Positions 6,235 through 59,836 of a stretch of 64,000 nt of DNA are shown here, in pieces; the stretch's first letter is position 1, and the number at the start of each line of letters is the position of its first letter. Under the pieces are notes generated by a model, which worked only from the letters and a program-made list of their open reading frames with translations, was not told the origin of the DNA and did not search any database. Where the stretch lies: the NCBI GenBank assembly GCA_018657065.1, contig JABHXU010000017.1, forward strand, positions 43,067 through 107,066, given 5' to 3'. Both the position numbers and the translations under genes were made by a program. Source of the DNA: an archaeon. GTDB lineage: Archaea > Nanobdellota > Nanobdellia > Woesearchaeales > GW2011-AR15.

Positions 6235-7308
6235 TTGATAATGGTAAAAAAAGGGTTGAATTATAATAATTTAATTTCTCAGCATTTAAAGATTTTAAAA
6301 GGTCTTCAGTATGAATCTGGTTTGTTTGCCGCGTCAGATAAAAGTGTAGGAACTGGGTATGATAAATCTTGGCTTAGAGATAATTTTTATGAATGTTTAG
6401 CTTTTGAAGTGATTAATGACTGGGATACAGTTGAAAAAACATACAGTGCGCTCTTAGAGATTTTTTTAAAACATGAAAAAAATATTGATAAAGCTATTGA
6501 AGTTAAACCTCAGCATAGACATCAATATATTCACGCACGGTTTCATCCAGAAACATTTGATGAATTTTGGGAAGAATGGGGAAACAAACAAAATGATAGT
6601 GTTGGAGCGATTTTATTTAGAATTGGAGAACTTGAACATCATCATAAAAGATCAATATTAAAAGAACCTAAATACTATCGAATTGTCAATAAACTTGTTA
6701 AATATTTAAGGAGTATAGAATACTGGCATGATGAAGATTCTGGTATGTGGGAAGAAAATGAAGAAATACATGCTTCATCAGTAGGTGCTTGCGTTGCTGG
6801 TCTTAAAGCTGTTAAAAAAATACCAGGCATTGAAGTTCCAAATGATTTAATTGAAAAAGGAAAAGAATCATTAATGAAATTATTACCTAGAGAATCAGAA
6901 AAAAAATTTGTTGATTTAGCTCTTCTTTCTTTGATTTATCCATATAATATTATTACTTCAACACAAAGAGAAGAAATTTTGAAAAATGTTGAATATTTAT
7001 TGCTTCGAAAAAAAGGAGTAATTAGATATAAGAATGATTATTATTATAATAAAAATCCTGATGGATATAGCGAGGAAGCTGAGTGGTGTTTTGGACTTAG
7101 TTGGTTAGCAATAATTTATCTTAAACTAGGAAGAATCAAAAAAGCAGAATTCTTTATTAAACAAATGCTTTCAATTGACACAAAAAAAGGAGTTCCAGAA
7201 TTATACTTTTCTAATACAAATAAACCCAATGAAAATACTCCGCTAGGCTGGGCAGAATCATTATTTATTGTTGCGCTGCATGAATTAAATGAAAAACACT
7301 TAGTTTAA
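6235..7308 (+). CDS. Glycoside hydrolase family 15-like (glucoamylase/glucodextranase six-hairpin) protein
   Basis: GYDKSWLRDNFY, DSVGAILFRIGE, EDSGMWEE, SSVGACVAGL, PLGWAESLFIVAL correspond to conserved GH15 (alpha/alpha)6 catalytic-domain blocks. Confidence 0.7.
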   Translation: MIMVKKGLNYNNLISQHLKILKGLQYESGLFAASDKSVGTGYDKSWLRDNFYECLAFEVINDWDTVEKTYSALLEIFLKHEKNIDKAIEVKPQHRHQYIHARFHPETFDEFWEEWGNKQNDSVGAILFRIGELEHHHKRSILKEPKYYRIVNKLVKYLRSIEYWHDEDSGMWEENEEIHASSVGACVAGLKAVKKIPGIEVPNDLIEKGKESLMKLLPRESEKKFVDLALLSLIYPYNIITSTQREEILKNVEYLLLRKKGVIRYKNDYYYNKNPDGYSEEAEWCFGLSWLAIIYLKLGRIKKAEFFIKQMLSIDTKKGVPELYFSNTNKPNENTPLGWAESLFIVALHELNEKHLV

Positions 7309-9063
7309 ATTTACTTTATTTATTTTGACAAAGATTTCTACATAAATTATATCAGAGTATAGAGGATTTTGTGTTATAATTTTTTCAGAATATGTTTTTC
7401 TAAAATAGGATCTAAAGGTTTCATAGTTGTTTACTTTGATGTATTCATAGATTTTAGTATAATAATTTGAATATTTAGAATCACTATACACAGGAATAGA
7501 ACTTGATATTAAAATAATATCATGTGATAATAAAAAATCAAGAATTAATTTATCATTAGTTAGATTGATGAAAGGATTATATTGATAAAGAAGAATTGAA
7601 AATTTGTTATTATTTTTTTGTAGATAATATCCAAGTACATCGTCTTCATAAGGTATTCCACCTAAAGAAAGAATGGAGTTACAATTAAAACAATTGTTTT
7701 GAATGTTTACAATTATTTTATTTAGATTATTTGAGTTGCTTAGATAGAATCTAGGAGTACCTCTAGAGTCAATTTGAGTTAATAAGTTGTTTGAGATTAA
7801 AATATTGTTTATTTTTTCTTGAAATGTATTTGTTGTAGTTGTATGTGGGATAGAATAAAAGATAATAAAAAAAAACAAAATAAACAAAATGAATCTTCTA
7901 ACACTTTTTTTAGTTTGATTAAGAAATACTGAAAAAATTATTGAGATAGGTAGAATTAATCCAAATATAACATAATAGTTTTTTGTTGGAAAAATTGAAA
8001 AAATTATCAGTGGGACAAAAATTAGAATTATCCAAAAATTAGAAAATAACTTTTTTGTTTTATGAAGTTTAGTTAGATACCAAAGTATACTTACGAAAAC
8101 AAAAATAGATAATATTAGATTCATTTGACCAAAAATTAGTGATTGTAGTTGGGTCAAATAACTCCAATTGAAATCAGGAGCTAGATATATTTTTAATATG
8201 CTTAATGTTCTTCGTATATACCACATTAGAGATATTGAAATAAAAATAAATCCACTTAAAAAAAAATTGTGGAAATTGTTTTTATGTTTTTTATTTAAGT
8301 AGGTAAAAAGTACAATTAATGCAATGATTAAAAAATACAAAAAAATAGAATTTGAAAAGAAAGATAATGTGTGAAATAATGTAAAGAACAGGAGCAAAAT
8401 AAAATTTTTTTGAATTAGTTGTTTAATGTTTTTAAATGTTAAATTTTTGTAATTTAAAAATATAGCAAAAATTACATGCGATAAAACATAAGGTGCTGCA
8501 GTAGGTTTGGTTAATAAAAATAAACCTAGAGAAATACCATAAAGAATTGAGAACTTTTTGTTGTGAAACTTTTCAGATTTTATCAAAAAGAATATACTTA
8601 AAGCATTAAAAAATAATAGTAATATTTGAGGATAATAAAACCTTGTAAAAAAAGTAAAAGAAGGAAAACTCAATAGAATTAATAGTGTATAAGTTGCCAC
8701 ATTTTTGTTATAAATTTTTGAAACACTAAAATAAACTAAAATAAGAGTTGTTAATGCAAGCTGTAAATTAAAAAAATAAAACACACTTTCATGCTGAAAA
8801 AATAGCATTAAAAAAAACGAGATAGTTTCAAACATAAAACTCTTATCAAATGTATCAATTGAAAATCTAATGTCTGTTTTTTCTTCATATAGTAATTGAA
8901 CAGCATTTGTTAAACCATAAGTTTCTTCATTAGTAAGTACTTCTTTGTTTGAAATAATCCAATAAACATTAGAAATAATAAACAACATTATAAGTAGAGC
9001 TAGGAAGATAAAAATACTTTTTGGATATTTTCTTGAAATTCTTTGAGTTTTTTTTTGATTCAT
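7300..9063 (-). CDS. Polytopic membrane protein, putative glycosyltransferase (PMT/ArnT-like topology)
   Basis: 587 aa; about 11 TM helices in the N-terminal two-thirds and a soluble C-terminal domain. Topology only; no catalytic motif verified. Confidence 0.4.
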   Translation of the reverse strand: MNQKKTQRISRKYPKSIFIFLALLIMLFIISNVYWIISNKEVLTNEETYGLTNAVQLLYEEKTDIRFSIDTFDKSFMFETISFFLMLFFQHESVFYFFNLQLALTTLILVYFSVSKIYNKNVATYTLLILLSFPSFTFFTRFYYPQILLLFFNALSIFFLIKSEKFHNKKFSILYGISLGLFLLTKPTAAPYVLSHVIFAIFLNYKNLTFKNIKQLIQKNFILLLFFTLFHTLSFFSNSIFLYFLIIALIVLFTYLNKKHKNNFHNFFLSGFIFISISLMWYIRRTLSILKIYLAPDFNWSYLTQLQSLIFGQMNLILSIFVFVSILWYLTKLHKTKKLFSNFWIILIFVPLIIFSIFPTKNYYVIFGLILPISIIFSVFLNQTKKSVRRFILFILFFFIIFYSIPHTTTTNTFQEKINNILISNNLLTQIDSRGTPRFYLSNSNNLNKIIVNIQNNCFNCNSILSLGGIPYEDDVLGYYLQKNNNKFSILLYQYNPFINLTNDKLILDFLLSHDIILISSSIPVYSDSKYSNYYTKIYEYIKVNNYETFRSYFRKTYSEKIITQNPLYSDIIYVEIFVKINKVNLN

Positions 9064-9158: not shown

Positions 9159-9307
9159 GCCCCTGTAGTGTAATGGATAGCACGTAAGATTGCGGCAAGT
9201 GGTGCGTCGATTGATACCGCACCGTGTACTATCGAACAGGTTCGACAGTACTAACTTTCAAAATTTGCAAAAATCTTGAAATCGGAGTTCAATTCTTCGC
9301 TGGGGCG
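9159..9307 (+). tRNA. Intron-containing tRNA, tentatively tRNA-Arg(GCG), with about 77-nt intron in the anticodon loop
   Basis: Hand-folded. Acceptor GCCCCTG/CTGGGGC has one T-T mismatch. D arm GTGT/AATGGATA/GCAC. Anticodon stem TAAGA...TCTTG is split by 9196-9272. T arm CGGAG-TTCAATT-CTTCG; discriminator G. The intervening segment forms two strong hairpins (GGTGCG/CGCACC and GTACTATCGAAC/GTTCGACAGTAC). Confidence 0.6.
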
Positions 9308-10466: not shown

Positions 10467-11513
10467 TTATAATGTTGCAAGTTCAACATTATTAAATTTT
10501 CTTTTATAATATTGCATATAATTTACTTTTCTTTCTATTGCATTTAATACTACTTTAGTAAAATTAAGTCCTTCAAGTTTACTAGCAGTACCTAGACCAC
10601 CAGGAGTAAAGACATTAATTTCTAAAATTTTAGTTCCAACAATATCTAAACCTACAAAAAACATTCCATCTTGAACTAATTTAGGTCTAACCATCTCAGC
10701 AATTTTTAACATTTCTGGAGTTACCGTAGCTGGAGCAATAGTTCCACCTGCGTGAATATTACTTCTTAAATCATCTGGGGAACGAATTCTTCTTGCTGCA
10801 GCATATTTACCTCTATGTTTAAGAGGAACACCATTAACTAGGAAAAGTCTAGTGTCACCTTCAGCTGCTTCTGGAACATATTCTTGAGCAATAACATATC
10901 CTGCTCTACTAACAGTGTCAATAATCTGATTAATATTAGAAATATCTGTTTTTTCAAGTAAAAAAACATTTTGTCCACCAGATCCTGAAATAGGTTTTAC
11001 AACAATTTTTTCAAATTTTTTTGCAAATGCTTTGATTTCCTCTCTATTTCTAGTTATTAAGGTTTTAGGTCTAAGTTCTTCAGGAAATTCTTGAGAATAT
11101 AATTTGTTACTTGCTTTAGATAATCCATTTGGATCATTTAAAACAATCACACCGTGTTTTGTTGCAATTCTTCCAAAATTTATACCAACATTTCTAGCCC
11201 ATGCTCTATTTGATTGTTCAGAAGCAGGATCATTCCTAAGCATCAGAACATCAAGCTGATCAATAGATATTCTTTCAATAATATGTTTTTTTGGATCTTT
11301 TAAATCTTTTAAATGTACATCAAGAGATTTGTACTTTTTACCTTTAACTTTTCTAGCGTGTGCTTTTATTAGATCATCTACATCATATGAAAGTCCACCA
11401 ACATCCATAATCCATACATCGTGGCCTGCATTAATTGCAGCTTGTGATAATCTCATTGTAGTGTATCTAGGACGTTCTGTTTCAAAATCATTTATTAAAA
11501 AACCTATTTTCAT
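10467..11513 (-). CDS. gshB: Glutathione synthetase-like ATP-grasp ligase
   Basis: Aligns by eye along the whole length with E. coli GshB: MLRNDP vs LMRKDPP; LITRNREEIKAFAKKFEKIVVKPISGSGGQNVF vs LVTRNKAQLKAFWEKHSDIILKPLDGMGGASIF; RLFLVNGVPL; NIHAGGT; FFVGLDIVGTKILEINVFTPGG vs IFVGLDIIGDRLTEINVTSP. Confidence 0.75.
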   Translation of the reverse strand: MKIGFLINDFETERPRYTTMRLSQAAINAGHDVWIMDVGGLSYDVDDLIKAHARKVKGKKYKSLDVHLKDLKDPKKHIIERISIDQLDVLMLRNDPASEQSNRAWARNVGINFGRIATKHGVIVLNDPNGLSKASNKLYSQEFPEELRPKTLITRNREEIKAFAKKFEKIVVKPISGSGGQNVFLLEKTDISNINQIIDTVSRAGYVIAQEYVPEAAEGDTRLFLVNGVPLKHRGKYAAARRIRSPDDLRSNIHAGGTIAPATVTPEMLKIAEMVRPKLVQDGMFFVGLDIVGTKILEINVFTPGGLGTASKLEGLNFTKVVLNAIERKVNYMQYYKRKFNNVELATL

Positions 11514-11517
11514 TTTT

Positions 11518-12590
11518 TCACCTATATGTTTTATTAAAGTAGTAGGATTCTTGATGTAATTTCAAAAATATTTTACTTGGGTCATTTAAACTTGGGATAT
11601 TCATTATTGTATTAATTTGTTTAATGTTTATTTTTCCATAATGTAAAAGATGCAAACAACTTGCATTTTGGATGAAATTTTTTACATCTATATAACCTTT
11701 TAGGTAAACATAGTCTTTTGTAAATGCTCCAGGTTTAGAAGTATTACATAATCCTCGTTTAGCACGTAGAGTCATAAGCCAAGAACTTTCTTTTGAAAAA
11801 TAATTTAATAACTCATTATATGTTTCTCTAAAACTAGTATTTAATGCATAATGAACAGCAAGAACACGTCCAGCATATCCTTTTAAAACTCGTTTGGATA
11901 ATCCACCAATTTTTTTTCTTTATATAAAGCAAGGCCTTCTTCAGTTGATTCATATTTAGCAAAACCAATTGAAAACATTTTATAAGGTTGCATTTCTCCA
12001 CAAACAGATCTTAAAACATGTCCATATATTTCATGAGCTATTAATCTATCAACTTGTATTTTTGTAAACATATCATTTTTTTTAATATAGACTGTTTTGT
12101 TTGTTGGGTTTACCATAGCTTTTGCTAAAATTGGTGCTTCAAGAACTGTCCATTTATTTGAAAATAAAGAAATTTCATTTAAAAACAATTTTTGAACAAC
12201 AGAACTAGGTATTGAACCTTTAGTAGTTTCACGGGTTTTGCTTGGAACTCTAGTGATATAGATTTTTGCTTTTTCAATTAATTTTTCATTAGGAAAACCA
12301 TATGCTCTCTTTGAAAAATTAGTAAATTTTTTTGTACCCAAGAATTTTCGCATTAATAATTGTGCTCTTAATTCTTTTCCTTTGGCTTTCATAAGTTGAT
12401 CAATAGGTCTATATCCATAAGAAATGCTTTTTAATAATTTAAATGAATATTTAACTGGATTATAGGTGAATTGTGGGTTGTATGTTTTTGAAGCAAAAAA
12501 TTTAGATTTTTCACTATTTAAATTAGATGGATTAAAATGTTTTAAATCAATTGTTCTTGAAATTTTTGCAAGTTTTTTATCTGCTATCAT
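11518..12590 (-). pseudogene. DUF1704 / QEGLA-motif HExxH metallopeptidase-like gene, split by a frameshift in a T8/A8 homopolymer (11910-11917)
   Basis: N-terminal ORF 11883-12590 carries IAHEIYGHVL (HExxH) and TEEGLALY (QEGLA-like), then ends. The C-terminal continuation (…KGYAGRVLAVHYALNTSFRETYNELL… then ORF 11518-11775) is in the +1 frame. One additional A in the A8 run would fuse them into about 360 aa. Confidence 0.65.
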
Positions 12591-13069
12591 TTATTTGACT
12601 ACCTTGTTATTTTCAATATGTTCTAATGAACTTTAGTTTTAATATTTATTGTTTATTTTTAGTAACGAAAATATAATATGATGTTTAATGAAATAGAATT
12701 TTTTATAATAAGAAAGTTTAATTTATTTTTCTATTGATTAAATATTTAAATAGGCTAAGTAAATATGAATTTATGGTACTTATTAATTTTCTAAGAAAAC
12801 TTGGTATTTTTAGATTTGGTATGAAGAAAGGTAAATATACTAATGGAAAAAATAGACCTACGGAATTTCAAATGAATAGTGTTTATGATGAAAAAAAAGA
12901 TTTAATTAGTTCTAAAAAATAATTTTTCAAATAAATCATACATAAAATACCTTTAATTTTAGCATAACTGTTTTTTTTTGAATTATATAATGTTGAGGAT
13001 AAATATTTGAAAATCAATCTAGAATTTTTTTTATAATCTTTATATATACATTGCACTTAATCTTTTTTT

Positions 13070-18740: not shown

Positions 18741-21700
18741 ATGTTTGGCGCTGACGAAGCAACTTATTGGTCAGATGAAACAGAATTATTTTTTGAAAGA
18801 TCAGTAGTTTGGTTAACAGAATTTGTAGATACAGATGGTGACGGAACACCAGACTTCGAAGATAATTGTCCTTGTTCATATAATCCAGGTCAAGAAGATG
18901 CAGATGGAGATGGACTAGGAGATATTTGTGATAATTGTCCAGTTAATTATAATCCAAATCAAGCAGACAATGATGGAGATACATTAGGAAATGTTTGTGA
19001 TATCTGTCCAGATGACACAGGTAATGATGCAGATAGTGATGGTTTTTGTTACCCAGTTGATTGTGTCGACACAGATAATACTATTTATCCAGGTGCGGAT
19101 GAAACTGTTTGTAATGGAATAGATAATGATTGTGATATCCTTTTAGATGAAGATTACGAAGAGGTTTCTTGTGGAGAGGGTGATTGTTCTGGAATGACTT
19201 CTTGCGAATTTGGTGAAATTTTTTGTAAAAATCAAGAAATAAATCAAGCAGGAAGTGATTGTGGAACTTGTTGTCAATGTGAAAATGATAATGATCCTCA
19301 AGAAGTATATGATGGAGCTCAAGATTTAGATTGTTCAGGTAATAATTTGCCTGGAATTTCAACTTGTAATAGTGATCCAGATAATAATCCAATGACATAT
19401 GATACTGCTGTTGGTTTTATTAGTGAATGCAGTGCAATTGATGTGTGTACAGAGGGAGAATATGAATTTAATCATGAATGTGATGTAGACTCTTGTGATG
19501 CAGAATGTGAAGATGGAAATTTCGAAGATGGAGATGGATGTAGTTCATCTTGTATTTTAGAAATTTGTGGAGATAATATTTTACATGAAACATTAGGAGA
19601 AGAATGCGACGATGGTAATACAGTCGATTTAGATGGTTGTGATGCAAGTTGTGTTATTGAATACTGTGGAGACGGTATTGATAATGATGCAGACAATGAA
19701 GAATGTGATGATGGTAATGATGTCGATGACGATGCATGTTCAAATTTATGTGTAACTAATTACTGTGGGGATTCAATCACTAATAATGGTGAAGAATGTG
19801 ATGATGGTAATAACGCAGACGGAGATGGATGTTCCGCATTATGTTTAGATGAATATTGTGGAGACGGTATTGACAATGATGCAGACAATGAAGAATGTGA
19901 TGATGGTAATGACGTAGATGACGATGCATGTTCAAACTTATGTGTAACTAATTACTGTGGGGATTCAATCACTAATAATGGTGAAGAATGTGATGATGGT
20001 AATAACGCAGACGGAGATGGATGTTCCGCATTATGTTTAGATGAATATTGCGGAGATGGAATACCTCAACCAGGTGAACAATGTGATGATGGTAATAATG
20101 TTAATGGAGATGGATGTGACAGTTTATGTGTTTCAGAAGTTTGTGGGAATGGTATACCTCAATTTGGTGAAGTTTGTGATGATGGTAATTTAGATGATAC
20201 AGATGCATGTTTAAGTGATTGTACGGCACCAGTTTGTGGTGATAGTATTGTATGGTTTGGCCATGAAGAATGTGATGATGGTGCAAATGGGATTGATACT
20301 GATGAATGTACAGATTCATGTACTTTAACTTATTGTGGAGATCAAACTCTTCAAATTTGGAATGGAAATAATGAAGTTGAAGAATGTGATGATGGTGCAG
20401 ATGGAGATGATACAAATACTTGTTATGATGATTGTTCATTTACATATTGTGGAGATTCTATAGTTCAAGATCCAAATGGATACGGAGTTAGTGAAGTTTG
20501 TGATGGCAATTCAATAGTTTGTGAAAACTTTGAAGGATATGCAGGAACAAGAGAATGTCAAAGTTCATGTAGAGGATTCGAAGATTGTCACACTGATGAA
20601 TATTGTGGAGATTCAATTACAAATGGATTAGAAGAATGTGATGATGGTAATAATGTTAATAATGATGGATGTGATGCATTTTGTGTCATTGAATATTGTG
20701 GAGATTCAATTACAAACGGATTAGAAGAATGTGATGATGGAAACAATGATGATGGTGATGGATGTGACGCAAGTTGTTATGACGAAATTTGTGGAAATAA
20801 TATATTGCAATTTGGTGAACAATGTGATGATGGAAACAATGATGATGAAGATGGATGTTCTTCTCAATGTGTTATTGAGTCATGTGGAGACACAATTGTT
20901 CAACTTGGATTAGGTGAAGAATGTGATGATGGTCAAGGAGATAACACTGATTCATGTCTAGATACATGTATGGACGCTGAGTGCGGAGATACATTTGTAT
21001 GGGATGGACAAGAAGAATGTGATGACGGAAACACAATCGATTTAGACGGTTGTGATGCAAGTTGTGTTATTGAATACTGTGGAGACGGAATAATCAATAA
21101 TGTTAATGAAATCTGTGACGAAGGTATTGATAATGGAGAACCTCTTCATTGTGACGCAGAATGTGGTGGAATAACTCTTCCAGTTTGTGGAAACTCTTAT
21201 CTTGAAGAAGGAGAGGAATGTGATGATAGTAATGTAGAAAATAATGACGGTTGTAATTCCGTTTGTGTCCTAGAAATATGTGGTGATGGAATTGTTCAGG
21301 ATGGTATTGGCGAAGAATGTGAATACGATAACCAATGTAATGATCAAGATTATCATACTGCAGACTATTGTGTAGAATGTGGTTGTGAAAATCCAATTAT
21401 TTGTGAAGATGAATGTCTTCCAACTAGTGAAGATATTTGTTCAGAGGATAGTGACTCAATCTTAGAATGTAGAAATGATTTTGATTCAGATCCATGTTAC
21501 GAATATGGTCCTAAATATGATTGTACAAATAACGAAGCATGTACAGTTATAGATCTAGATGAAGCATATTGTGGATCTTGCCAAACAAATTGTGGAGGAA
21601 AATGTTATTACACTCAAACAATTTATGGTGAATGGTCATGCGGCGAAGGAGATTGTTTATACACACCAGTAATTGAGTTTATTGACATTGATAATGATTA

Positions 21701-22295
21701 CATTGATGATAGATGTGATGATTGTATTGATCTAGATAAGGATGGTATTTGTGACCATGAAGATACTTGTCCAGATGTTTATAATCCAACAAACGTAGAT
21801 ACTGATGGAGATGGTGTAGGAAATGCTTGTGACTATGATAGAGATAATGATGGGTATGATGCATCAGTAGATTGTCATGATTGGGACAAAGATATTAATC
21901 CAGGTATGAAAGAAATTAAGGGAGACGGGAAAGATAATGACTGTGATCCACTAACTTCAGACAAAGAAATCAAAATTAGAAGTCAAGATTTATTGCTTGG
22001 AACAAAAATCATGAACGAAGACACAGCAATTGATGATAGAGAATTAAGAGTAGCTGTTTATGTCAAAAACAAAGGAAGTAAAACTGCTAAAAATATTAAA
22101 CTTAAAGCAACACTTCTAGATGAATATGTTTCTGACGAAACAATTATGCCAACTCTTAAAGCAGGAAAAACTAGTAGAGTAATCTTAAATATTCCTCTTT
22201 ATGGTGGAGTAATGCCAGATGAATACTACTTAAGAACTACATTAAGTGTTGAAACAGTAAAAAAAGCAAAATATAGTCAAGTGTTATTGCACTGA
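18741..22295 (+). CDS. Giant cysteine-rich repeat protein: thrombospondin type-3-like Ca-binding repeats + about 20 Myxococcus-type cysteine-rich repeats ([11 protein letters not shown]...DGC...C) + C-terminal CARDB-like domain
   Basis: 1184 aa. [38 protein letters not shown] (TSP3-like). Reiterated YCGDxI..[15 protein letters not shown](S/D)xxC units. TSP3-like repeats again near the C-terminus, then a beta-rich tail. No N-terminal signal peptide at the annotated ATG. Confidence 0.8.
   Translation: [1184 protein letters not shown]
19665..20048. repeat. Near-perfect tandem duplication, 2 x 192 bp, inside the cysteine-rich repeat gene
   Basis: 19665-19856 and 19857-20048 differ at about 5 nt. 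Both encode [64 protein letters not shown]. Confidence 0.8.
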
Positions 22296-58069: not shown

Positions 58070-59836
58070 ATGGCTAAAAGAATATTAAGCAACATCAGTA
58101 TTTCAAAAAAATTGATTTTGATATTCTTAGCTATAGTCTTGTTTTCAACATCAATTAGTGGATATTTGGGTTATTTAAATAGTAAAAAAATAGTGGAAGA
58201 AAGAATTCAAGATCAATTGCTTAGTGTTTTAGTTTTAAAAGAAAATAGTATGGAAAATTTTTTTAAATTATTAAGAGAAGACATTGAAAATTTTGCAGGA
58301 AATAAGGAAATTAAAGCTTATTTTGAAGAATTTCACTTTTCAACTAATAAGGTTAATCCAGAATTGGAAGAGTTAAAAGAAGAAGAAATTGAATTATATT
58401 TTCGAGAAGAACTAATCCATCATGCACATTTTTTAGAGATATTTTTATTAGATGTAAATGGGAAAATTGATATTTCAACAGAAGCAAATCAAAAAGGAAA
58501 AATAAAAAGTTCAGATGATATTTTTTTGAAAGGAAAAGAAAGAACATATATAAAAAATATATATTACTCAGTTTCCAGGCAAGAACCAACATTAACAATT
58601 TCAACTCCAGTCTTAGCAGAAAATAATAAAGTTTTAGGAGTTCTTGTTGGAAGGGTGAATTTAAATGAACTATCAGCTATTTTAGAAGAAAATTCCGGAT
58701 TAGGTAAAACAGGTGAAACCTATCTGGTGAATAAATTTAATTATGCAACAACAAATTTATTAGAAAATAGCGATAAAACATTGAAAACAATTATTACAAC
58801 GGATGCAGTCCAACATTGTTTAAATCGTGAGAATGCAAATTTGCATGATTCACCTTATTTTATGTCTGGTTATAAAAATTACAATAATGATCCAGTTATA
58901 GGAAGTCACAGATGGATCGATAATAGAGAAGTATGCATAATAACTGAAATTAATCAAGCTGAGGCTTTTACTCCAATTTATAGATTAAGAAAAATTGTTA
59001 TTTATATCTCTTTTATTTTAACATTTGTTACATTTATTATCGCAATAATATTTTCTCGAACAATTAGAGATCCAATTCAAAAATTGCAAAAATCAGCTGA
59101 AAAAATTGCAACTGGAGATTTGGATTCTTCGATTTTAATTGAATCAAATGATGAGATTTGGTATTTAGCAAAAACATTGGATGATATGAGAATTAAATTA
59201 AAAGAAACATTGGATGAAATTAGAAAACATCAAAATGAACTTCACACAGTTGTAAATGAAAAAACTGAAGATTTAAATAAAAAACTTCAGGAACTTGAAG
59301 ATACAAAATTAGCAATTATTAATATTTTAGAAGACACTGATTATGCTAACAAAGATCTTATGAATACAAGAGACGCTTTAAAAAATAATATTAAAGAATT
59401 AAAAGCAATGGATAAAACTAAAGATGAATTTTTATCTATTACTGCTCATGAACTTAAGACTCCATTGACAAGTATTAAAGGTTTTATCGGATTATTAAAA
59501 AACGAAAAAGTTATGCAAAATATGGTCCAACGAAATAAATATTTTGATATTATTATTGAGGATACAAAAAGACTTGGGCAATATTCAGCAAAAAACCAAT
59601 TATTATATGATGAAACAATAAGTAAAGTAGTTGATGTAAATCCATCAGATACTGCTTCAGCAATATTAAGATATAATACCTTTTCTGAAGAATTTGAAGT
59701 CACAGTTCATTGGCCAGGATTTGGATGGTTCCCTAGTTTTAATAATCAAGATTTTCTTTATTTAAAATCTTTTGAAGGATATTATTTTGATCAAACAGGA
59801 GGTGCGAATTGGACACATGATCCAGAAAAAAATTAA
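58070..59836 (+). CDS. Sensor histidine kinase-like protein: TM, Cache-like extracellular domain, HAMP, HisKA; no recognisable HATPase_c
   Basis: H-box LSITAHELKTPLTSIKGFIGLL. HAMP ...IRDPIQKLQKSAEKIATGDLD.... The C-terminal 130 aa lack N/G1/G2 boxes. Confidence 0.6.
   Translation: MAKRILSNISISKKLILIFLAIVLFSTSISGYLGYLNSKKIVEERIQDQLLSVLVLKENSMENFFKLLREDIENFAGNKEIKAYFEEFHFSTNKVNPELEELKEEEIELYFREELIHHAHFLEIFLLDVNGKIDISTEANQKGKIKSSDDIFLKGKERTYIKNIYYSVSRQEPTLTISTPVLAENNKVLGVLVGRVNLNELSAILEENSGLGKTGETYLVNKFNYATTNLLENSDKTLKTIITTDAVQHCLNRENANLHDSPYFMSGYKNYNNDPVIGSHRWIDNREVCIITEINQAEAFTPIYRLRKIVIYISFILTFVTFIIAIIFSRTIRDPIQKLQKSAEKIATGDLDSSILIESNDEIWYLAKTLDDMRIKLKETLDEIRKHQNELHTVVNEKTEDLNKKLQELEDTKLAIINILEDTDYANKDLMNTRDALKNNIKELKAMDKTKDEFLSITAHELKTPLTSIKGFIGLLKNEKVMQNMVQRNKYFDIIIEDTKRLGQYSAKNQLLYDETISKVVDVNPSDTASAILRYNTFSEEFEVTVHWPGFGWFPSFNNQDFLYLKSFEGYYFDQTGGANWTHDPEKN

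Follow-up and report, generated by a model that had tools for sequence, protein, structure and literature searches.

In eukaryotes, MATCAP opposes TTL/TTLL, and the human enzymes MATCAP1/TMCP1 (KIAA0895L) and TMCP2 (7z5g, 7z6s; PMC10499314) belong to the same Pfam family, PF08014, as a peptidase that is encoded, in two pieces, within a 64-kb stretch of archaeal DNA (the whole of the stretch that was analysed, hereafter the window). The two have in common HExxxH and EEGLA-type motifs and a RAKRG...TS.PG.F.KD..YL.G block, and human MATCAP is the best structural match of the modelled fused protein, yet with ~22% identity and a TM-score of ~0.55. By analogy, the archaeal protein would act as a carboxypeptidase that takes single residues off C-termini, in opposition to an ATP-grasp ligase. 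Unlike the human system, this one is found in an archaeon without a tubulin substrate or microtubule-binding regions, its partner is GshB-like rather than TTL-like, and the peptidase gene is frameshifted. As a side observation, FtsZ is encoded within the window. In the library that was searched, no relevant paper on prokaryotic DUF1704/QEGLA/MATCAP homologues was found, and none that links MATCAP with ATP-grasp enzymes.

A prokaryotic parallel is the bacterial grouping of a QEGLA/DUF1704 peptidase (TIGR02421), a PRK12458 ligase and an FGase, in which the first two represent the same families, in the same order and on the same strand, as the pair in the window. The ligase of the window is 58-62% identical to the bacterial partner ligases, whereas the peptidase belongs to a DPANN clade of its own, has no more than 20-29% identity to its bacterial counterparts, does not have their N-terminal extension and is broken. 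No FGase-family amidohydrolase (PF05013) gene adjoins the pair in the window, although the full three-gene form does exist in a DPANN relative (L168). The ligase also shares the ATP-grasp fold of E. coli GshB (1gsa, 1gsh, 2glt), with its GSH-S_N and GSH-S_ATP domains, and the positions of the small Gly-rich loop, the large flexible loop and the Mg/ATP ligands are conserved. The differences are that its N-terminal substrate domain does not align, that it scores below the equivalog cutoffs and that it is tied genomically to a carboxypeptidase, not to gshA.

As for the break itself, AT-rich reduced genomes such as those of Buchnera and Blochmannia carry poly(A)-tract frameshifts that are partly rescued by transcriptional slippage, usually at tracts of A10 or longer, some of which are conserved across lineages. 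The present case resembles these (a small AT-rich genome, an indel of one base within a coding poly(A) and an intact downstream frame), but its tract is an A8 and has been seen in one near-clonal population only. The other precedent is archaeal, since the fucA1 gene of S. solfataricus has been shown experimentally to undergo programmed -1 frameshifting on A-AAA-AAT with 5% efficiency (PMC1616953). Here too there is an archaeal gene in two ORFs that are related by a -1 shift, with an A-rich X_XXY_YYZ heptamer in a short overlap. However, at fucA1 there are rare codons and a putative stem-loop next to the site, while the site in the window has no structure, its break is not shared by relatives and the same heptamer is frequent in intact genes.

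Layout of the locus and the split peptidase

All features of the pair lie on the minus strand. The first open reading frame, ORF-A (11883..12590), is identified by its reading frame and PF08014 as the N-terminal 235 codons of a MATCAP/DUF1704 metallocarboxypeptidase gene and is named 'DUF1704 domain-containing protein [archaeon]' at NCBI. It holds the metal-binding and catalytic motif H186-E-I-Y-G-H191 (codons 186-191, 12018..12035), recognised from sequence and from conservation in homologues, and a TEEGLA motif (codons 216-221, 11928..11945), which homologue conservation marks as a form of the (Q/E)EGLA of the family. The break is at an A8 tract in the mRNA sense (11910..11917), identical in all independent assemblies examined, which forms an A_AAA_AAA heptamer. 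Beyond it, the C-terminal 129 codons (I229-R357) and the TGA stop are read in the -1 frame (11518..11910), from ATT at 11908-11910 to TGA at 11518-11520; NCBI annotates the two pieces as separate CDSs, with PGAP starting the second at the ATT. A 4-nt spacer (AAAA) separates this stop from the ATG (11511-11513) of the ligase gene (10467..11513), and an AGGTGA read from the sequence (11518..11523), which overlaps the peptidase stop 4-5 nt 5' of this ATG, might act as an SD-like element for the ligase. On the 3' side of the ligase gene, 211 nt of intergenic DNA precede a membrane protein gene.

An earlier note on this DNA had described a DUF1704-like gene broken at the A8 tract, carrying its EEGLA-type motif in the upstream ORF and ending 4 nt before a gshB-like start on the same strand. 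All of this agrees with the coordinates above, and the split gene is real, with DUF1704 on both sides of the break and a pairing that proved to be conserved (see below). Three details have to be amended: HEIYGH is not HExxH but HExxxH, the form typical of the MATCAP family (PMC10499314), and the downstream continuation lies in the -1 frame rather than +1 and measures 129 codons instead of 125.

The peptidase gene thus does not read without interruption, the -1 break being at A8. Since both frames are open together only over ~37 nt (11883-11919), and this overlap, in which the slippery X_XXY_YYZ heptamer A_AAA_AAA is present, contains the A8 (read in frame 0 as GA_A AAA AAA TTG), the lesion maps to the tract. 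As the C-terminal codons are read in -1, the gene is made whole by a single additional A; one added nucleotide or a -1 slip would have this effect, whereas a +1 ribosomal shift would not. The ancestral tract was presumably an in-frame A9 encoding K-E-K-K-I, because the protein of the closest intact relative (P0001; JGI 3300072015) is identical at K-E-K-K-I-G-G and another relative (L006) has an in-frame A8, GAA AAA AAA GCA, at the corresponding site. In its present form, ORF-A encodes 228 native residues, and its last 7 codons (LVDYPNEF) are an out-of-frame read-through to a TAA; this frame-0 stop comes 8 codons past the tract. We found no convincing case of a second homopolymer frameshift in the window; a histidine kinase ending at an A7 was considered as a candidate and rejected, since the ORF that follows it has no kinase domain.

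Once repaired, the fused protein (357 aa) matches PF08014 over profile positions 2-330 (166.4 bits, cutoff 27, E = 1.2e-48), and its C-terminal piece alone matches positions 229-330 (67.3 bits, E = 1.6e-18). The fused protein aligns gap-free with homologues across the junction, where KEKKIGGLSKRVLKGYAGRVLAVHYAL is identical to P0001; identity to this relative is 69% for the repaired protein and 78% for the C-terminal piece, which keeps all invariant alignment columns. Among 65 homologues, H186, H191, E217, E218 and G219 are invariant, and 90% or more of the homologues also have E187, T216, L220, A221 and the other residues of the motifs; a Glu within TEEGLA is the presumed third metal ligand. 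For the proteobacterial QEGLA equivalog (TIGR02421), the protein scores 183.7 bits, below the cutoff of 338.65; a bacterial partner peptidase scores 336 bits.

The AF2 model of the fused protein is a single domain (pLDDT 95.5, pTM 0.92) whose best PDB match in Foldseek is human MATCAP (7z5g_A, E = 9.6e-12, probability 1.00, TM 0.55-0.58), followed by M32 carboxypeptidases, and by analogy the repaired protein would be a metallocarboxypeptidase removing a C-terminal residue. In the predicted domain core, the junction is a short loop (residues 228-232) between helices 213-227 and 233-251. The truncated product keeps the metal motifs, and the lost C-terminal third holds the conserved R276, K278, R279, K292, D293 and Y296. 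Because this third belongs to one compact domain in the model, the 235-aa product is most likely inactive.

The ligase and its genomic partners

The second gene is an intact GshB-like ATP-grasp ligase of 348 aa, assigned by NF009110 and Pfam to the PRK12458 subfamily: it scores 453.9 bits against NF009110 (cutoff 408), with residues 1-348 covered by the 349-position model. It falls short of both canonical GshB models (201 vs 299.05 for TIGR01380 and 215.2 vs 272 for NF003573), in keeping with the earlier note, which held that a bona fide glutathione synthetase would be unexpected in a minimal archaeon. With phmmer, E. coli GshB (1gsa) is matched at E = 1.2e-35, aligned over residues 82-330 only. 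All 119 columns that are invariant in an alignment of 15 sequences are kept in the ligase; R222, R242, R250, N252, D290, E298 and N300, which correspond to R210, R225, R233, N235, D273, E281 and N283 of E. coli, are invariant in that alignment, and we take them to have the catalytic and loop roles of these equivalents. The contig collection lists the exact protein in 76 of its index blocks.

Seen from the ligase, the pairing is a conserved module, as the earlier note had supposed in proposing a check of co-occurrence. A DUF1704 homologue is encoded, usually directly upstream and on the same strand, at 51 of the 56 metagenomic loci of GshB-like ligases with at least 1100 nt of upstream sequence, and an FGase-family amidohydrolase is present in half of all the ligase loci (40/80). 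The order of peptidase then ligase is the same in three DPANN loci (L007, L166 and L168), and in one DPANN relative a RimK-type ligase adjoins the peptidase instead. Seen from the peptidase, a GshB-like ligase is present at only 2 of 80 GTDB loci, mostly DPANN. We therefore rejected the pairing as a general DPANN trait and regard it as a feature of a subclade. The other GTDB peptidase genes have as neighbours PTH2, an RsmB/F-type methyltransferase, or a CorA-like or ThrRS-like protein (the last two identified from sequence only).

Weighing the explanations

The earlier note had left open whether the break is a sequencing error, a true frameshift or a slippage-dependent gene. Homopolymers are the classic place for length errors and a single base is missing, as would be expected if the true genome carried A9 and an intact gene, but such an artefact is very unlikely, indeed essentially excluded. 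The A8, as read from assembled contigs, is the same in four independent assemblies (99.98-100% identical to each other) and across samples, pipelines and archives (NCBI MAGs, JGI, ENA and Logan; MEGAHIT k141 and SPAdes NODE contigs); at least 50 contigs carry the truncated 235-aa ORF and 69 carry the downstream ORF, and the repaired 357-aa sequence is absent among 15 billion proteins, with no intact copy on record. Moreover, an intergenic tract near 12980 is A9 or A10 depending on which of these same assemblies is read, so homopolymer variation is resolved where it exists. The frameshift is therefore genuine, and the recurrence of the two-ORF split in related genomes points the same way by the criterion that the earlier note had set, though these genomes are conspecific and nearly identical (up to three differing positions in 13 kb; the few ORF-A variants are all singletons). 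A full-length peptidase made on purpose, by -1 ribosomal frameshifting or by RNA polymerase adding an A, would hold the removal enzyme (or two isoforms) at a low, constant proportion to the ligase, and the perfect frame-0 heptamer, the archaeal precedent on A-AAA-AAT (PMC1616953) and the frame-0 stop so soon after the tract speak for it. So does the downstream frame, which is fully open over its 129 codons in a genome of 28% GC, keeps all conserved residues and is conserved like that of unbroken homologues (C-part/N-part identity ratio 1.19-1.60, against 1.28 +/- 0.15 for intact pairs); an open frame is, however, equally expected of a very recent lesion and of a full-length protein that is still made and selected. 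Against deliberate slippage, the break is not conserved in diverged relatives, since P0001, the top matches (the conspecific 235-aa ORF left out) and the GTDB relatives followed across the site are all unbroken, and there is no stimulatory RNA structure downstream of the heptamer, where the MFE of -16.7 kcal/mol matches the shuffle mean of -16.71 (z = 0.00) and the folding of 93 among 200 shuffled sequences is as good or better. The signal is not specific either, because the intact ORFs of the window hold the A_AAA_AAA heptamer in frame 70 times and a sense A tract of at least 8 nt 36 times, and the heptamer alone thus cannot drive efficient shifting without harming many genes. With nothing positive for it, we consider the slippage-dependent gene unlikely. 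A minority A9 subpopulation may exist (phase variation); that the A8 is a functional recoding or phase-variation site, tuning the MATCAP-type carboxypeptidase against its partner ligase by slippage on A_AAA_AAA, is an idea to which we give little credence, but if true it would adjust a C-terminal add/remove cycle in a prokaryote, comparable to the tyrosination/detyrosination of tubulin.

Two further readings take the genes as they stand. The 235-aa fragment, which has the metal motifs, could associate non-covalently with a 130-aa fragment that has its own start, to give an active split enzyme, in keeping with their annotation as separate CDSs and with the retention of every conserved residue across both pieces. 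This is highly improbable, since no SD-like sequence precedes the ATT, the next ATG gives only 85 aa, the junction is buried within what is predicted to be a single compact domain, in its core, and no relative has such a split. As for the ligase, it could be a plain housekeeping glutathione synthetase whose adjacency to the peptidase is functionally meaningless. NCBI and JGI do label it glutathione synthase, it scores above the cutoff of the PRK12458 'glutathione synthetase' subfamily model with GshB catalytic residues conserved, and a GCS2-family ligase gene adjoins on the sister contig (JGI, 39.6 kb) that encodes P0001, where the counterpart of the ligase is in two pieces of 65 and 258 aa. 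We nevertheless hold this to be improbable, given that both canonical equivalog cutoffs are missed, that adjacency to the peptidase holds in loci spanning 35-69% GC, that the FGase-family amidohydrolase is a third conserved partner and that no GCS2 gene is among the conserved neighbours; in the window, no gamma-Glu-Cys ligase gene is adjacent to the pair. What the evidence favours, and what we think probable, is an incipient pseudogene of the removal arm, created by a recent A9-to-A8 deletion in a near-clonal DPANN population in which the ligase is intact.

Meaning of the pair

The proposed mechanism starts from what would be an operon of two genes in a Woesearchaeota-like member of the DPANN archaea, consisting of a MATCAP/DUF1704 HExxxH metallocarboxypeptidase and, 4 nt on, a GshB-like ligase. 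Using ATP to activate a terminal carboxylate, the ligase would extend the C-terminus of a peptide or protein, or a small Glu-containing molecule, by an amino acid, and the peptidase would take a C-terminal residue off again, so that the pair would make up a cycle of addition and removal; this tagging-and-removal function is suggested by the chemistry of the families together with the gene order. The deletion of a single A in the poly-A tract truncates the peptidase and would thereby disable the removal arm. This deletion is recent and fixed in a nearly clonal population, with no further decay of the downstream frame. Slippage on the A8 at background level, during transcription or translation, could still provide a little full-length enzyme, and such low-level rescue is possible, with no evidence of programming.

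For the locus alone, little is at stake: a frameshift in a poly-A tract has become fixed in a DPANN population with AT-rich DNA, and the case, which is well documented, tells us which of two enzymes in such a unit can be the first to go. What matters more is the two-gene unit, which is widely conserved and uncharacterised: a family known for tubulin detyrosination in animals is tightly linked, in diverse bacteria and in a DPANN subclade, to ATP-grasp ligases of a C-terminus-extending kind, which makes the prokaryotic pair a candidate C-terminal add/remove cycle, and a natural knock-out of its removal arm could help to find the substrate of the pair.

The split peptidase gene and its ligase neighbour

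The MATCAP/DUF1704 metallocarboxypeptidase gene is divided into two reading frames on the minus strand. ORF-A, its 235-aa N-terminal piece (11883-12590, -), carries HEIYGH and TEEGLA, reads through an A8 tract (11910-11917, -; mRNA ...TAT AAA GAA AAA AAA TTG...) and stops eight codons past it. The -1 frame has stops up to three codons ahead of the tract and is then open for 129 codons to a TGA at 11518-11520, so the two frames overlap by only ~37 nt, with A8 inside the overlap. The GshB-like ATP-grasp ligase (348 aa; 10467-11513, -) starts at an ATG (11511-11513) 4 nt beyond that TGA, and an SD-like AGGTGA ahead of it overlaps the peptidase stop. The earlier note had these coordinates and this gene order right on reading the sequence, but three details need amending: its HExxH is HExxxH, the form typical of the MATCAP/DUF1704 family (PMC10499314); the C-terminal part sits in the -1 rather than the +1 frame and is brought back by the addition of an A or by a slip of -1; and the continuation measures 129 codons, not 125. 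The same gene contains a second A8 tract, in frame (12076-12083, -; ATT AAA AAA AAT), which illustrates how many slippage-prone targets a single gene may hold.

Once one A is added, the 357-aa product matches PF08014 (MATCAP, formerly DUF1704) with 166 bits over profile positions 2-330 (67 bits for the C-terminal piece alone) and falls under the cutoff of TIGR02421, the proteobacterial QEGLA equivalog. It aligns gap-free with 15 and with 64 homologues, keeping all invariant columns on either side of the break, and its junction, KEKKIGGLSKRVLKGYAGRVLAVHYAL, is the same in the closest intact relative, P0001, an unbroken 381-aa protein of 69% identity. A sequence match with human MATCAP (7z5g; E = 2e-16) runs across the junction, and AlphaFold2 predicts one compact domain (pLDDT 95.5, pTM 0.92), a model whose top solved-structure matches are human MATCAP followed by M32 carboxypeptidases. 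The truncated peptidase retains the metal motifs and has lost the conserved C-terminal third. The ligase gene is intact; its product exceeds the NF009110 cutoff (PRK12458 'glutathione synthetase' subfamily; 454 bits vs 408), lies under the cutoffs of both canonical GshB equivalogs and is alignable to E. coli GshB, with catalytic and loop positions kept.

Origin of the A8 tract

That the A8 is an assembly artefact, as the earlier note's sequencing-error option would have it, is very unlikely, since the same tract recurs across separate samples, studies and archives and no intact sequence is on record. In the contig collection, 76 index blocks list the exact ligase protein. Over 13 kb, the window is matched at 99.98-100% identity by four loci, which come from different ENA samples and the NCBI MAG GCA_018670325.1; all four carry A8 and the split gene, as does a fifth, low-coverage contig from a separate study. 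Exact look-up in sources including NCBI (several MAG accessions), JGI, ENA and Logan gave 50 contigs for ORF-A and 69 for the downstream ORF, and found no exact copy of the repaired 357-aa sequence among about 15 billion proteins. Moreover, neighbouring homopolymer variation does show up in these assemblies: ~1 kb away, between the peptidase gene and a pentapeptide-repeat gene, the intergenic tract at 12972-12980 is A10 in L003, L004 and L005 and A9 in the window, L001 and L002 (lengths in the sense orientation); either the population is truly polymorphic here or this non-coding tract is unstable. Homopolymer length differences thus get recorded where present. One ORF-A variant, P0243 (6.9-kb ENA contig), has a singleton T216I in the near-invariant TEEGLA (at least 90% conserved), which may reflect weakened constraint, or else an error in sequencing.

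Functional slippage or phase variation could in principle restore the protein, as the tract holds a heptamer, A_AAA_AAA, that fits the slippery pattern perfectly, fucA1 (A-AAA-AAT, 5% efficiency; PMC1616953) provides a precedent from another archaeon, and the downstream frame is undamaged, with a C-part/N-part identity ratio to homologues of 1.19-1.60 against 1.28 +/- 0.15 in intact pairs. We nevertheless consider it improbable, because the break is present in none of the relatives examined, shuffled versions fold just as well as the 121 nt from the tract onward (z = 0.00), and in the window's intact ORFs A_AAA_AAA occurs 70 times in frame and there are 36 runs of 8 or more A on the sense strand, which makes the signal non-specific; efficient shifting there would harm many genes. 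An intact downstream frame is also just what a recent lesion should show, because the population is nearly clonal, and by rough estimate neutral decay would need ~3% divergence before a stop arises. At the equivalent site, the GTDB locus L006 reads GAA AAA AAA GCA in frame; we infer that the window's ancestor carried GAA AAA AAA ATT (A9), one A then being lost at a hot spot. We conclude that the break is a recent, fixed A9-to-A8 deletion; full-length peptidase, if any, would come from background slippage.

Pairing of peptidase and ligase across genomes

Pairing is strong from the ligase side. Among 80 JGI metagenome loci (ligases 58-62% identical, 35-69% GC), the upstream sequence reaches 1100 nt or more in 56, and 51 of these encode a DUF1704 homologue. 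In most cases the homologue immediately precedes the ligase gene in the same orientation; occasionally it follows it in the opposite one. In 40/80 there is also a third partner, an amidohydrolase of the FGase family (PF05013). From the peptidase side, pairing is a subclade feature: the ligase occurs in only two of 80 GTDB peptidase loci, mostly DPANN, the remainder adjoining PTH2 (19 loci), an RsmB/F-type methyltransferase, or a CorA-like or ThrRS-like protein (both recognised by sequence alone). In loci that lack the ligase, the next gene after the MATCAP-like one is PTH2 peptidyl-tRNA hydrolase in 17/80 and the RsmB/F-type methyltransferase in 12/80, a hint that the stand-alone form is connected with translation.

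Pairing is enriched among the closest homologues of the window peptidase, and in a neighbour-joining tree these homologues form one subclade in a DPANN clade that lies apart from the bacterial partners. Two of them show the pair with a 4-nt overlap (L166) or together with FGase (L168). The 39.6-kb contig of P0001 (JGI sample 3300072015) is also paired, with an intact peptidase, a GCS2-family (PF04107) ligase divergently upstream and a GshB-like ligase that may be broken (called as 65 aa + 258 aa; the piece P0126 begins at Met91). Within this subclade L167 shows a second kind of ligase neighbour: its 47%-identical MATCAP-like gene (7084-8351) is flanked, convergently, by a RimB-like aspartic protease and an ATP-grasp ligase of RimK type in place of the GshB-like one. 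When L086-L165, L007, L013, L166 and L168 are compared with the window, the two partners differ greatly in how they diverge: ligase identity is equal between archaea and bacteria (0.48-0.67) and among archaeal-side loci (0.52-0.68), vs 0.20-0.29 and 0.35-0.47 for the peptidase. This suggests that the ligase is under extreme constraint or has been transferred repeatedly.

The host and a possible ligation-removal cycle

The host is fairly described as a DPANN archaeon: the window has 27.7% GC and encodes PTH2, an XPD-type helicase, FtsZ, an intron-containing tRNA and a ribosomal protein with an S13/S15 N-terminal domain, of a type typical of archaea and eukaryotes, NCBI labels exact window proteins '[archaeon]', and the nearest peptidase homologues belong to MAGs of Woesearchaeota and Nanoarchaeota. 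The tRNA (9159-9307, +), for which ARAGORN made no call, matches Rfam over 149 nt for a 71-position model, implying the intron. Elsewhere, a 1184-aa ORF (18741-22295, +) is made up of numerous repeats rich in Cys and Asp (C..GDG....EECDDGN), and a sensor kinase-like ORF (58070-59836, +) with dCache, HAMP and HisKA domains and no recognisable HATPase_c ends at an A7 tract, the ORF after it, in another frame, having no Pfam match.

The split peptidase beside a ligase, first seen in the earlier note, is confirmed in the sequence; its interpretation is borne out in part, for the family, the conserved ligase pairing and a genuine frameshift, and the sequencing-error option is made very unlikely by the same A8 in separate assemblies. 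Both family memberships and the conserved gene order of the pair are plain. A literature search found no experimental work on prokaryotic MATCAP/DUF1704 members. GshB, RimK and TTL turn a terminal carboxylate into an acyl-phosphate intermediate and so attach an amino acid to it. MATCAP/TMCP enzymes take off single C-terminal residues (PMC10499314). Judging by family chemistry, the pair may thus run a cycle of C-terminal ligation and removal on a peptide, a protein or a Glu-containing metabolite. What the locus adds is a new, damaged example of a gene pair already known though uncharacterised, and the removal arm of such a cycle would be largely or wholly lost in this archaeon.
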